Shown here: piece after piece, positions 24,498 to 26,612 of the stretch
How the letters are laid out: each line of letters starts with the position of its first letter
How positions within the stretch are numbered: the stretch's first letter is position 1
Source of the DNA: Alphaproteobacteria bacterium
Lineage (GTDB): Bacteria > Pseudomonadota > Alphaproteobacteria > CACIAM-22H2
Assembly (NCBI GenBank): GCA_017308135.1
Contig: JAFKFM010000013.1
Coordinates: forward strand, 63,437 to 127,436
Length of the DNA stretch: 64,000 nucleotides
Reading direction: 5' to 3'
Made by a program: the position numbers and the translations under genes
The notes under the pieces: model-generated
Told to the model about the DNA's origin: nothing
Database searches by the model: none
What the model saw: only the letters and a program-made list of their open reading frames with translations

Positions 24498-24782
24498 TCA
24501 GCGTTTCGGCGCCGAAGGAAAGCCGGCGCTGGTCGTCGCATTCGTCAGATCTTTGACCTCTGCCCGCGCGTCATCGAACACAACGATCGCCGTTTTTTCC
24601 TTAAACGAAACGGTGACTTTTGAGACGCCGGAAACCTTCTCGATGGTCTTCTTGACCATGTAAGGACAGGCTTCGCAGTACATGTTGTCCACCGCCAGGG
24701 TGACGGTTTGTTGCTCCGCCATTGCCCCGCCGGAGGAAATGATAAGCAACCCGAGCGCAAGCGAAGTGGGGAACTTCGTCAT
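24498..24782 (-). CDS. MerP-like periplasmic heavy-metal-binding (HMA) protein
   Basis: GGAGAG RBS. Signal peptide MTKFPTSLALGLLIISSGGAMA. HMA fold with a MYCEAC metal-binding loop. Confidence 0.8.
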   Translation of the reverse strand: MTKFPTSLALGLLIISSGGAMAEQQTVTLAVDNMYCEACPYMVKKTIEKVSGVSKVTVSFKEKTAIVVFDDARAEVKDLTNATTSAGFPSAPKR

Positions 24783-24793
24783 TGATCTCTCCA

Positions 24794-25171
24794 TCATGAT
24801 GTCAGCACGGGCCAAAGGACGTTGAACGCGATCGCAGCGACAACCAATATCGTCGCGACGACGAGCGTGGGATTTACGAATTTACTCGCCGATCGAGTTG
24901 AGCATGCCGCATCTCTTTTTTGGTTCGATGAGCGATGCCACAGCCAGTATCCACACCCAAGACAGGCAACCGCTACGGCAATGAAATAGGGCTGATAAGG
25001 GGCGAGCCGAACCAGCGTGCCTATCCATGGAGCGCTGGCTCCCAAGGTAAAAAGAAGCAGCGGCAACATGCTGCACGACGCCGCCGCGACAGCGCCCAAG
25101 GCACCACCCGCCGCGGCGGCATTTTGTAGGCGCGTTACGTCGCGAGAACTATCGGCACCTCTGCTCGTCAT
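24794..25171 (-). CDS. MerT-like membrane protein with altered cysteine pattern
   Basis: Collinear with the bona fide MerT at 31624..32025 (PWIGTLVRLAPYQPYFIAVAVACLG vs AWIGNLTALKPYQPLFVGLAVACLG). TM1 has SCS instead of CC, TM2 has CLGC, and the loop keeps one Cys. Confidence 0.7.
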   Translation of the reverse strand: MTSRGADSSRDVTRLQNAAAAGGALGAVAAASCSMLPLLLFTLGASAPWIGTLVRLAPYQPYFIAVAVACLGCGYWLWHRSSNQKRDAACSTRSASKFVNPTLVVATILVVAAIAFNVLWPVLTS

Positions 25172-25183
25172 AACGCCAGCCTG

Positions 25184-25882
25184 TCAGACCGCCAGTTCGG
25201 GAATCCAGATGTACACCGCGTTCAACATGTAGAAGCCCATCGCGATCAGGAGCACGCCACCAGCAATCTCGAAACCTCGCCGGTATCGGGCAAAGTGGCT
25301 GAGGTTTTCAAGCCAACTGACGGCGAAGGCGCCGATGGCGATGGGCACGGCGCGGCCGAGAGCGAACGCAAGAAGCAACACCACTCCAAGCCAGACCGAC
25401 CCGATTCCCGCCGTGACACCGAGCAACACCACCAAGGTTGGCGTGCAGATCGGGCACACCGCGATGGCGAACGGGATTCCGAGAAGGAAAGCTCCCCACG
25501 CGGCGGCTGGGCGGCTTGCCCGAAAGCCGAACGACGGCAGCGGTATCCGAAGCCAACCAGCCCACATGAGGCCCAGGATGATCAACAACGGCCCGAGAAA
25601 AAGCCCCCAGCCTCGTCCAGCGATATCCGCGACCCATTTCCCGCCCAATCCTGCGATCAGGCCGAGAACCACATGGGTGAGAACCATGCCCAGGATGAAC
25701 ATGGCGCCGAACAGGAATGCCTGGTCCTTGTCCCGACCCTTGGTGACGTAGGCGAGCGAAACCGGGATCGAAGCCAAAGCAACAGGATTGAAGCTGAACA
25801 CAAGCCCGGTCAGAAACGCGACGCCCGCGGCGGCGCCGCCCGCATGCTCCACTGCCAGCCGTAGCGATTCTGCATCCATCAT
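25184..25882 (-). CDS. DsbD_2/CcdA-like polytopic membrane protein with a single CPIC motif
   Basis: Six to seven TM helices with CcdA-like repeats. The TM1 Cys is missing (FSFNPVALAS) and the only cysteines form AVCPICTP. The stop of the upstream gene overlaps its start. Confidence 0.65.
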   Translation of the reverse strand: MMDAESLRLAVEHAGGAAAGVAFLTGLVFSFNPVALASIPVSLAYVTKGRDKDQAFLFGAMFILGMVLTHVVLGLIAGLGGKWVADIAGRGWGLFLGPLLIILGLMWAGWLRIPLPSFGFRASRPAAAWGAFLLGIPFAIAVCPICTPTLVVLLGVTAGIGSVWLGVVLLLAFALGRAVPIAIGAFAVSWLENLSHFARYRRGFEIAGGVLLIAMGFYMLNAVYIWIPELAV

Positions 25883-26139
25883 TCGCGCCCTTTACTTCGC
25901 TCGATCAGCGCCGTGCGCAGTTGCGCTACAGTCGGCATTGACGTGAAAATGAGTTTTCCGTCGACCGCGATGGATGGGAGCGTCAGCACGCCGAGTTCGA
26001 CCGCATAATCGAGTTCATCGAGAACATTCAATTCTCGCCACACCAGATTCTTCACCGCTTCCTGAGCGGTTGTCCGGAGCCTGGCGTGCGCAACGACGCA
26101 TTCGGAGCAGCCGGGGGTATAGAACATCTCGACTTTCAT
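25879..26139 (-). CDS. Small thioredoxin/glutaredoxin-fold protein (CSEC active site), no signal peptide
   Basis: MKVEMFYTPGCSECV... places CxxC at the N-terminus of helix 1 in an 86-aa Trx-fold-sized protein. A LTLPSIAVDG (cis-Pro region) motif is present. Confidence 0.7.
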   Translation of the reverse strand: MKVEMFYTPGCSECVVAHARLRTTAQEAVKNLVWRELNVLDELDYAVELGVLTLPSIAVDGKLIFTSMPTVAQLRTALIERSKGRE

Positions 26140-26142
26140 GGA

Positions 26143-26562
26143 TCAATGCACCGGTGTCTTGACGTTGGCTCGTTCCAGAGCGGCGATAATCGTGCACTCG
26201 TTTACTGGCTGGGTTTCGTTCGCGCAGTCGGCTATCAGTTGATCGAGCGCCTTGGACATCGCCTTCATCGCGCGAATCTTGCTTTCGATCTGCAATTTCT
26301 TTTCGACGGCTCGGGTGCGGACGTCGCCGCAACAAGCCTTGTCGCGTCCCCGCAAGACAAGGAGATCGCGTATCTCGGCAAGCGTGAAGCCGCAGTTCTG
26401 GGCATGCTTGATGAAGCGGATGCGCCGTGCCGAGTCCTTGTCGTACAGCCGATAACCAGCAGGACTTTTCCCTGCAGGTTCGACCAGGCCTTCCTGTTCG
26501 TAATAGCGCAACGTGTCGTTGCTGACGCTTGTGAGGGAAGCCAATTTGCCGATGGTGAACAT
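26143..26562 (-). CDS. MerR-family metal-responsive regulator (ZntR/CadR/PbrR-like)
   Basis: N-terminal wHTH FTIGKLASLTSVSNDTLRYYEQEGL, a coiled-coil dimerisation helix, and Cys ligand candidates ACCGD ... ADCANETQPVNEC. Confidence 0.85.
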   Translation of the reverse strand: MFTIGKLASLTSVSNDTLRYYEQEGLVEPAGKSPAGYRLYDKDSARRIRFIKHAQNCGFTLAEIRDLLVLRGRDKACCGDVRTRAVEKKLQIESKIRAMKAMSKALDQLIADCANETQPVNECTIIAALERANVKTPVH

Positions 26563-26581
26563 GCAGTCTCTCCAGCGTGTG

Positions 26582-26612
26582 TTCTAGACCCCGGAGTATA
26601 CTCCAGGGTCAA
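26582..26612 (-). promoter_or_regulatory. MerR-type promoter/operator with 19-bp spacer
   Basis: On the minus strand: TTGACC-ctggagtatactccggggt-CTAGAA. The spacer is a near-perfect palindrome (ACCCTGGAGTATACTCCGGGGT) and, as I recall it, resembles the E. coli zntA promoter. It sits 20 nt upstream of the regulator ATG. Confidence 0.75.

Follow-up and report, generated by a model that had tools for sequence, protein, structure and literature searches.

Resistance to Hg(II) rests, to our knowledge, on reduction by MerA, and we know of no established system that is dedicated to the efflux or relay of Hg(II) independently of that enzyme. The described systems closest to the locus considered here are the mer transport chain, the regulons of the MerR-family sensors ZntR, CadR and PbrR, the CcdA/DsbD electron transporters and the ArsE/ArsG pair; the pbr operon also joins uptake, a cytoplasmic cysteine-rich binder and efflux. 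The locus lies in a stretch of 64,000 nucleotides from an alphaproteobacterial genome (assembly GCA_017308135.1, contig JAFKFM010000013.1, positions 63,437 to 127,436), hereafter the window, in which the minus strand between positions 24498 and 26612 carries five co-directional open reading frames (ORFs). In order, these encode a MerR-family regulator (R), a thioredoxin-fold protein (Trx), a membrane protein of the CcdA/DsbD fold (CcdA*), a diverged MerT (MerT') and a periplasmic HMA protein (MerP'), and all five products pass the corresponding Pfam thresholds (MerR, Thioredoxin_3, DsbD_TM/DsbD_2, MerT and HMA). A preliminary description of this DNA, made from its letters alone, had noted five tightly packed genes on one strand with the regulator first, and this is what the ORFs show: the gaps measure 3 nucleotides (R/Trx), 12 nucleotides (CcdA*/MerT') and 11 nucleotides (MerT'/MerP'), and Trx and CcdA* overlap by 4 nucleotides (ATGA). 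No ORF for an oxidoreductase or reductase, MerA included, was found within 24498-26612, again as previously noted. We give an even chance to the reading, drawn from comparative analysis, that Trx and CcdA* form a thiolate-exchange metal relay within a MerR-controlled regulon, with Hg(II) as the likeliest metal and outward as the likeliest direction.

CcdA* (25184-25882, minus strand) is a 232-residue protein with six transmembrane (TM) helices, scoring 49.1 bits on DsbD_TM against a threshold of 27.1, and 41.2 bits on DsbD_2. Its profile matches the solved structure of CcdA (PDB 5VKV) with an E-value of 2e-6, and in this alignment the canonical cysteine of TM1 (xPC) falls on Val34 (FNPVALASIP), a position at which 88 homologues show no cysteine column. 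The canonical cysteine of TM4 aligns with Ile145, and a new pair, C143-P-I-C146, occupies positions -2 and +1 relative to it; both C143 and C146 are present in all 88 homologues, in which there is no other cysteine column. Judged from these alignments, CcdA* has lost both canonical redox cysteines and has acquired a CPxC motif that flanks the old TM4 site, which bears out the earlier statement that a DsbD_2/CcdA-like protein here lacks the TM1 cysteine and carries an intramembrane CPIC. An AlphaFold2 model of CcdA* was of low confidence (mean predicted local distance difference test score, pLDDT, 65; predicted template-modelling score, pTM, 0.64). Its top, and only meaningful, Foldseek match was 5VKV (TM-score 0.50), and its helices break at residues 31-32 and 142-145, as in the broken TM1 and TM4 of the DsbD_TM fold; at this pLDDT the model is too uncertain to judge cavity access or the direction of transport. 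The ratio of non-synonymous to synonymous substitution rates (dN/dS) is 0.12 for this gene. The best NCBIfam match of CcdA* is the ArsG efflux permease (NF040495; 9e-17), with 61.2 bits against a cutoff of 200.

Its partner Trx (25879-26139, minus strand) is a minimal cytoplasmic thioredoxin-fold protein of 86 residues, without a signal peptide, that scores 31.2 bits on Thioredoxin_3 against a threshold of 24.8. It carries CSEC at residues 11-14, and the CxxC is kept in 82 of 83 homologues, although the GCxxCx motif occurs in 43 variants among the 83 sequences, differing mostly in the intervening dipeptide. Trx remains under the cutoff of the MJ0307 model and scores 27.8 bits on the MTH895/ArsE model TIGR00412, the cutoff of which is 62.

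Relatives of CcdA* were classified among the top 150 matches from a search of 1.84 billion representative sequences (50% identity). These top 150 split cleanly into a canonical type with xPC in both TM1 and TM4 (37 representatives) and a second type with no cysteine in TM1 and with CPxC or CPC in TM4 (at least 41 representatives). Among the representatives without the TM1 cysteine, five carry a Pfam-verified HMA domain, N-terminal in four of them and C-terminal in one, and HMA::DsbD_TM fusions amount to about 65 clusters; an extra TM helix in the fusions should put the HMA domain in the cytoplasm. In Pseudonocardia, a fusion of this kind (with CPAC) stands in the gene order MerR (divergent), HMA, ATPase, HMA::DsbD_TM, exported anchored HMA and a transporter of the major facilitator superfamily (MFS); in two loci (L097 and L098) an oxidoreductase of the DAO family (PF01266) is inserted between the ATPase and the fusion. 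The Pseudonocardia ATPase has the motif GYPCAVG and is 59-60% identical to an ATPase encoded upstream of R in the window, and the MFS transporters of the two are 53% identical. The same set is found on a metagenomic contig (L099), where the MFS transporter is 61% identical to that of the window and where a MerA (47% identical, ending in CC) stands beside an ArsR-type regulator about 4 kb from the cluster. Since the Pseudonocardia set has a fused HMA domain where Trx stands in Proteobacteria, a Trx fold and an HMA domain can, as far as gene order and domain content indicate, stand in for each other as the cytoplasmic CxxC partner. The three-tier layout of cytoplasmic CxxC, membrane CPxC and extracytoplasmic HMA thus recurs in Actinobacteria. 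A search of plasmids with the HMA::DsbD_TM fusion by tblastn gave no match, and the actinobacterial CcdA-type 'mercury transporter' was not found on pMAB23, on which MerT and MerH are present instead.

A further membrane protein, of 204 residues with one cysteine in each half (FFEPCTIATH and LTLPACTLP), is encoded between Trx and CcdA* in nine loci (L035, L039, L042, L053, L063, L064, L079, L080 and L087) of Thiobacillus, Sulfuriferula and Gallionellales. It has no match in Pfam or NCBIfam and is fused to CcdA* in three representatives of 431-436 residues (P0266, P0271 and P0273).

The distribution of the genes indicates which of them belong together. Relatives of CcdA* occur in 289 genomes of Alpha-, Beta- and Gammaproteobacteria, as found in a scan with one genome per species. 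Of these loci 80 were mapped, together with seven plasmid loci, and the ORFs of all 88 sources (the 87 loci and the region in the window) were clustered. Trx accompanies CcdA* in 75 of the 80 species loci and R in 70, most absences falling at contig ends, and MerT' is found in only five. The conserved unit is therefore, on this comparison, R-Trx-CcdA* and not the five-gene operon, and the conservation of a quartet of Trx, DsbD_2-like, MerT-like and MerP-like genes, for which neighbourhood mining had been proposed, is not borne out. An ATPase with a YPC motif is present in 39 of the species loci, a small HMA protein beside the ATPase in 35, an MFS transporter in 23, placed either before R or after CcdA*, and a protein with the motif GDCCVxC in 13. 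Betaproteobacterial plasmids show the order HMA-ATPase-HMA-R-Trx-CcdA*-MFS. An additional small protein of the Thioredoxin_3 family, its six cysteines arranged as CxxC, CxSC and CC, is encoded directly 5' of R in 14 loci (L029, L030, L048, L049, L057, L058, L067, L069, L070, L072, L073, L077, L081 and L083).

The region in the window is 96.8% identical to plasmid 2 of Nitrobacter hamburgensis X14 and 93.4% identical to plasmid pOC167 of Afipia carboxidovorans OM5, in which the genes are annotated in generic terms as heavy metal-responsive regulator, thioredoxin family, cytochrome c biogenesis CcdA, MerT family and MerP/cation transporter.

Beyond the set itself, the commonest neighbours in the unbiased ORF clustering were MerT-family genes (29 loci), MerA (23 loci) and RND pumps (15 loci), and ars and cop genes were also found. 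Among the 41 loci with full flanks, a true mer gene is present in 16 and MerA lies within about 7 kb in 13; no MerA is found nearby in 28, and the triad R-Trx-CcdA* stands alone in seven. In four loci (L048, L049, L077 and L081) the triad lies directly downstream of merRTPA(DE), and MerT'/MerP', or MerT, MerP or GDCCVxC genes, follow CcdA* in the window and in L008, L010, L015, L020, L021 and L057. The GDCCVxC protein, which belongs to a cysteine-rich family named in NCBIfam and is encoded after CcdA* in 13 loci, also occurs inside true mer operons (L029 and L056), and in L036 it forms the N-terminal part of a fusion with a MerB-like lyase. This fusion suggests by analogy that GDCCVxC may be a cytoplasmic Hg-binding domain comparable to NmerA. 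In Mesorhizobium and in metagenomes (L088-L095), the arrangement ars-HMA-ATPase-MFS-R-Trx-CcdA* adjoins trb/virB conjugation genes, and because of these genes the module is considered to be carried on an integrative and conjugative element (ICE) or plasmid backbone; it was seen on many contigs.

R, the product of the first gene of the operon (26143-26562, minus strand; 139 residues), is a putative metal sensor with matches to Pfam MerR, MerR_1 and MerR-DNA-bind. Its best NCBIfam match is ZntR with 121 bits against a cutoff of 143, followed by a second ZntR model with 116.6 bits (cutoff 168), and it scores 105.6 bits on the MerR equivalog TIGR02051 (cutoff 150.85), 96.6 bits on CueR (147) and 87.1 bits on CadR-PbrR (151), so that it stays under all of these cutoffs. 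It has four cysteines, Cys77, Cys78, Cys113 and Cys123, conserved in 78, 82, 79 and 80 of 82 sequences, respectively, and the C-x9-C loop formed by the last two is kept in 76 of the 82. The dN/dS of R is 0.02. R would control the regulon and respond to metal.

A promoter/operator of the MerR type, P2, precedes R on the minus strand (26581-26612). Its reverse complement reads TTGACC-CTGGAGTATACTCCGGGGTC-TAGAAC, in which the -35 element TTGACC (26612-26607) and the -10 element TAGAAC (26586-26581) enclose the dyad ACCCTGGAGTA/TACTCCGGGGT. The preliminary description had spoken of a ZntR-like operator with a 19-bp spacer; the dyad and the long spacer are there, but the spacer measures 20 bp, and 19 bp only if CTAGAA is taken as the -10 element. 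No other site in the window shares the P2 dyad (2 self-matches, with 0.02 expected), and with up to three mismatches allowed no copy in the window other than P2 was matched. Reading of the sequence nevertheless revealed an element of the same type, P1 (30706-30737, minus strand), upstream of genes for an HMA protein, an ATPase and an MFS transporter; it reads TTGACC-TAGGAGGTAACTCCAGGGGT-TAGCAT and likewise has a 20-bp spacer. Both elements thus show a dyad between -35 and -10 sequences 19-20 bp apart. A scan with the consensus sigma-70 promoter returned no promoter, an outcome expected for long-spacer promoters. A strict pattern locates elements of the P2 type 5' of R in 25 loci, many further loci show dyads that are visibly related, and a pattern search placed an operator of the P1 type 5' of the HMA gene in 17 of 27 loci. 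The loci with the betaproteobacterial order have a single such operator, ahead of one long operon HMA-ATPase-HMA-R-Trx-CcdA*-MFS. In the window, the HMA, ATPase and MFS genes lie directly upstream of R on the same strand (26680-30737). Because one operator type is common to R and to HMA-ATPase, and because the betaproteobacterial-type loci have only one operator for all, the five genes are, on this evidence, the distal half of a two-promoter regulon whose other half comprises the HMA protein, the YPC-ATPase and the MFS transporter. The view of a self-contained five-gene unit is accordingly given up, the same operator type also preceding HMA-ATPase-MFS and the conserved core being the triad.

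The proximal half begins with HMA75 (30453-30668, minus strand), a cytoplasmic CopZ-like HMA protein of 71 residues with the motif CDAC, which stays under the cutoff of all NCBIfam metal-binding and CopZ models that it matches. It is followed by the YPC P1B-type ATPase (27932-30385, minus strand; 817 residues; TIGR01525, 558 bits), the N-terminal HMA domain of which carries CSLC. Aligned to its nearest solved structure, CopA of A. fulgidus (3J09), this ATPase has GYPCAIG in TM4 in place of CPC and FN in TM5 in place of YN, and in our own alignment from the sequence the MxxSS position of TM6 reads V-S-V; the CPC/YN/MxxSS ligand set of the P1B-1 (CopA) type is thus absent. Presumably the enzyme lacks the TM6 aspartate of the Zn/Cd type as well as four of the six Cu(I) ligands of CopA. 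The motif MGYPCA[VI]GISAP is found in 40 of 46 linked homologues and in two further close variants (42/46), and the ATPase may represent an unclassified P1B subgroup with a single transmembrane cysteine. The MFS transporter (26680-27930, minus strand), of about 416 residues if read from the ATG located 1 nucleotide after the ATPase stop codon, scores 188.6 bits on MFS_1 and contains no cysteine.

MerT' and MerP', at the distal end of the operon, are, from their sparse occurrence, a lineage-specific addition to the core. MerT' (24794-25171, minus strand; 125 residues) scores 58.9 bits on Pfam MerT against a threshold of 32.9, and 58.5 bits on the equivalog NF010314, the cutoff of which is 150; it is 42% identical to the true MerT of the window. 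In place of the canonical CC of TM1 it has SCS, whereas all six aligned relatives have SCCMLPL. The difference amounts to one T-to-A change, from TGC to AGC (Cys to Ser; codon 25071-25069, minus strand), seen against both Nitrobacter X14 and Afipia OM5. The CLGC of its TM2 corresponds to ASLGC in two of the six relatives, and the cytoplasmic-loop cysteine pair, of which MerT' in the window retains a single residue, is kept in two of the six, so that neither of the cysteine pairs expected of a MerT (in TM1 and in the loop) is intact in the window. The dN/dS of MerT' (0.35-0.42) is the highest of the cluster, although the substitution counts are small, and the gene may be decaying in this strain. 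MerP' (24498-24782, minus strand), with its signal peptide and with the start taken as the Met after GGAGAG, passes the MerP equivalog TIGR02052 with 96.9 bits (cutoff 92.55). It is 48% identical to the other MerP of the window, which itself scores 68.5 bits on the same model and thus stays under the cutoff, and its CEAC is an ordinary HMA motif of the form MxCxxC. The cysteine patterns listed earlier (CSEC, CPIC, SCS, CLGC and CEAC) are all present in the sequence. The claim that each product carries a rearranged CxxC motif is contradicted by the canonical CC of the MerT' relatives, by the lack of conservation of CLGC and by the ordinary nature of CEAC; the further claim that the differences are not lineage noise does not hold for MerT'/MerP', SCS being a single-base change. 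Rearranged motifs as a family trait of MerT' and MerP' were considered and ruled out by the alignment of relatives and the TGC-to-AGC change.

The true, divergent merR/merTPA operon, the presence of which nearby had been correctly recognised, is located at 31060-33877. Its MerA (32438-33877) scores 541.6 bits on TIGR02053 against a cutoff of 454 and is a short form of 479 residues without NmerA. The true merR stands directly upstream of P1 and the HMA gene and is co-directional with them. Beyond merA lies an ORF for an ArsH-like flavoprotein (33917-34639, minus strand); downstream of MerP' follows an OpgC-domain acyltransferase (22410-23993, minus strand), the gene for which is also found in OM5, and a methyltransferase-like membrane protein (19850-20500, plus strand) has a conserved counterpart in X14. 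The window as a whole is a composite island of metal-resistance genes.

What the core pair does may be approached from its fold or from its neighbours, and the two lead to different answers. The CcdA fold of CcdA*, the membership of Trx in Thioredoxin_3 and the CxxC, a classic redox motif, would suit an electron relay in which a housekeeping reductase feeds Trx and, through the CPxC of CcdA*, keeps periplasmic thiols reduced under metal stress, with MerP', MerT' or general Dsb/Ccm clients as recipients. The two-cysteine membrane protein found between Trx and CcdA* in nine loci, and fused in three representatives, could be placed in such a relay, and in Mesorhizobium a different CcdA homologue beside cadA is induced by Zn and Cd (PMC3668242). 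The relay is nonetheless improbable, as both cysteines of the TM1-TM4 disulfide of CcdA/DsbD are replaced in 88 of 88 sequences, the cytoplasmic partner of related proteins belongs to the metal-binding HMA domains and is no oxidoreductase, and the core has no conserved periplasmic thiol partner. Trx has the fold and the CxxC of a predicted redox thioredoxin, but the dipeptide within its CxxC appears unconstrained, with 43 motif variants among 83 sequences, a point that is suggestive only. It is because of the lost redox cysteines, the possible replacement of Trx by HMA and this seemingly unconstrained dipeptide that a metal relay is favoured over an electron relay, and for similar reasons (the lost CcdA cysteines, the possible HMA partner and the many loci, most of them, that lack a periplasmic thiol partner) the first of the two readings offered in the preliminary description, a thiol relay keeping MerP' reduced, is disfavoured. 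The second, a route for a thiophilic cation, comes close to the metal relay, except that its restriction to cations other than Hg sits poorly with MerT and MerA as the commonest neighbours from outside the set. The general notion of a thiol-based, MerR-regulated system without a reductase is supported by the comparisons.

If a metal is moved, both its identity and its direction have to be considered. Known Hg importers are almost always found inside mer operons, and this counts against a mer variant in which CcdA* imports Hg(II) by intramembrane vicinal cysteines, like MerT (CC), MerC (CxxC), MerF and MerE (CPC), and in which Trx or GDCCVxC takes the place of NmerA and supplies Hg(II) to a core-only MerA whose gene lies elsewhere. 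Only 13 of the 41 full-flank loci have MerA at a distance of up to about 7 kb and seven have the triad alone, the set is co-regulated with an efflux-type ATPase, and cells that induce an importer but have no reductase would be expected to become more sensitive; this variant is left with a small chance. In its favour stand the short MerA of the window, the MerT/MerP-type or GDCCVxC genes after CcdA* in several lineages and the triads that immediately follow merRTPA(DE); a role in mercury resistance has been listed for members of the DsbD family (PMC4608589), and actinomycete CcdA-domain proteins have been annotated as mercury transporters (PMC12195606). It is also rather unlikely, though less readily dismissed, that the same machinery serves another metal, such as Cd(II), Pb(II), Zn(II) or possibly Cu(I), Ag(I) or Au(I), and that its proximity to mer reflects island hitch-hiking. 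R scores best on ZntR models, the operator with its 20-bp spacer is PzntA-like, the four conserved cysteines of R would suit tetrathiolate binding of Cd or Zn, the closest matches of the ATPase and HMA75 are CopA and CopZ, respectively, and RND, ars and cop genes are among the neighbours. Cd, but not Zn, induces adjacent thioredoxin-related and cytochrome c biogenesis genes of M. metallidurans STM 2683 (MESS2v1_1660011/12) about 3-fold (PMC3668242). This pair is a candidate for the same module; a comparison by way of a Mesorhizobium-type query, cluster members and encoding contigs showed the module on an ICE in Mesorhizobium isolates but did not tie STM 2683 to it. Against another metal speak the changes in the ATPase (CPC to YPC, YN to FN), the mer genes, which outnumber every other resistance family among the neighbours, and GDCCVxC, which is common to mer operons and fused to MerB.

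In the favoured metal relay, R would act at the ZntR-like long-spacer operators and control both operons, and the translationally coupled Trx and CcdA* would be the functional core that moves a soft thiophilic metal across the inner membrane. The metal would pass from the CxxC of Trx to the CPxC in the broken helix TM4 of CcdA* and on to periplasmic MerP' where this is present, by thiolate ligand exchange as in MerP, MerT and NmerA and not by disulfide exchange. The pair would act beside the co-regulated HMA chaperone, the YPC-type P1B-ATPase and the MFS transporter, and outward movement of Hg(II) would amount to a reductase-independent detoxification. Metal binding, the identity of the metal, the direction of transport and the role of R are what we infer, whereas gene order, motifs, conservation, operators, fusions and neighbourhoods were observed directly. 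With a likelihood a little under even, Hg(II) is the leading candidate for the substrate, because MerT and MerA are the commonest neighbours from outside the set, because 16 of the 41 full-flank loci contain a true mer gene and because GDCCVxC also occurs in mer operons and in a fusion with MerB. As to direction, export is judged somewhat more probable than import, because the nearest curated family is the ArsG efflux permease (far under its cutoff), because the triad stands alone in seven of 41 loci and 28 of 41 have no MerA, where an inducible importer without a reductase would be harmful, and because the set is co-regulated with an efflux-type ATPase.

Several observations weigh against this interpretation. 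The nearest families of Trx (MJ0307 and MTH895/ArsE) are named thioredoxins, and the CPxC might be a redox motif in its own right. The closest likeness of R and of its operator is to ZntR (121 bits for R, against 105.6 on MerR), and the four conserved cysteines would suit Cd or Zn as well. The adjacency to mer could reflect shared metal-resistance islands or ICEs, an ICE context with ars having been seen. A second exporter beside a P1B-ATPase looks redundant, and the addition of MerT/MerP, which are importers, to the operon in several lineages is not easily reconciled with export; the MerA of the window, being without NmerA, might need a separate acceptor, a point that also counts against export. 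The CcdA* model has low confidence (mean pLDDT 65), and the ArsG match is far under the cutoff (61 against 200 bits).

A published description of the triad, of the CPxC-type DsbD_TM clade, of the GDCCVxC protein or of the YPC-ATPase was not found in the literature, in keeping with the initial impression that no described system was recognisable here. The general idea has a precedent in the members of the DsbD family linked to mercury resistance (PMC4608589) and in the annotation of a CcdA-domain mercury transporter (PMC12195606). The comparisons give substantial support to a metal-resistance gene set that appears undescribed and that, by homology, would be a variant of known systems. Somewhat short of probable is the wider proposal that the CcdA electron-transporter fold has been converted to a 'CPx-type' soft-metal translocator with an exchangeable cytoplasmic CxxC partner (Trx in Proteobacteria, fused HMA in Actinobacteria) which, together with the YPC-ATPase and the MFS transporter, would constitute a reductase-independent, cross-phylum and undescribed system of resistance to mercury or another soft metal. 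If true, this would show clearly how a membrane fold for electron transfer can be turned into a metal carrier and would provide a function for a P1B-ATPase subgroup with a single transmembrane cysteine. The module is found on plasmids and ICEs of soil, groundwater and mine-site bacteria and in 289 species genomes, and present annotations of its core genes read 'cytochrome c biogenesis protein CcdA' or 'thioredoxin family protein'; if Hg, Cd or Pb is detoxified by it without a reductase, the reading of metal-resistance potential from genomes and metagenomes would change.

Compared with the CcdA/DsbD transporters represented by 5VKV, the system has the same fold and family and a thioredoxin-fold cytoplasmic partner; in CcdA*, however, both active-site cysteines are replaced and a new CPxC is present, its relatives are fused to HMA, and a dedicated periplasmic Trx-like client is absent. 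In PMC9144182, ArsG is cited as an efflux transporter. The ArsE/ArsG pair of arsEFG organoarsenical resistance similarly couples a small Thioredoxin_3-type protein to a DsbD-fold membrane protein, and it provides the best curated match for CcdA* (named ArsG efflux permease by NCBIfam) and one of the best for Trx, but the scores are far under the cutoffs, and the regulator and all neighbours are of metal type and not of ars type. The ZntR-zntA, CadR-cadA and PbrR-pbr regulons share with the present system a MerR-family sensor whose cysteines include one where the dimerisation helix begins and two within the C-terminal loop, a dyad like CTGGAGT..ACTCCAG in a TTGAC-N19/20 promoter, and control of a P1B-ATPase. 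R differs from these sensors by its CC doublet, its C-x9-C loop and its scores, which lie under every equivalog cutoff; the ATPase carries YPC instead of CPC, and the gene for R opens the operon and is co-transcribed with the rest. The Pseudonocardia HMA::DsbD_TM clusters have an orthologous YPC-ATPase and MFS transporter, a CPxC-type DsbD_TM, a MerR-family regulator and both cytoplasmic and exported HMA proteins; there, however, a fused HMA domain of the membrane protein supplies the cytoplasmic CxxC in place of a separate Trx, the regulator is divergent with fewer cysteines, and no MerT is present. The Mer chain (MerP; MerT or MerC/MerF/MerE; NmerA; MerA) offers the likeness of a periplasmic HMA CxxC, intramembrane vicinal cysteines and a cytoplasmic CxxC acceptor, together with a MerR-family activator, a long-spacer promoter, MerT/MerP homologues in the operon and frequent adjacency to true mer. 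It differs in that the present operon lacks MerA, that R is under the MerR cutoff, that the cytoplasmic acceptor has a Trx fold, that the central protein has the six-TM CcdA fold and not that of MerT, MerC or MerF, and that in most loci the core stands without any mer gene nearby.

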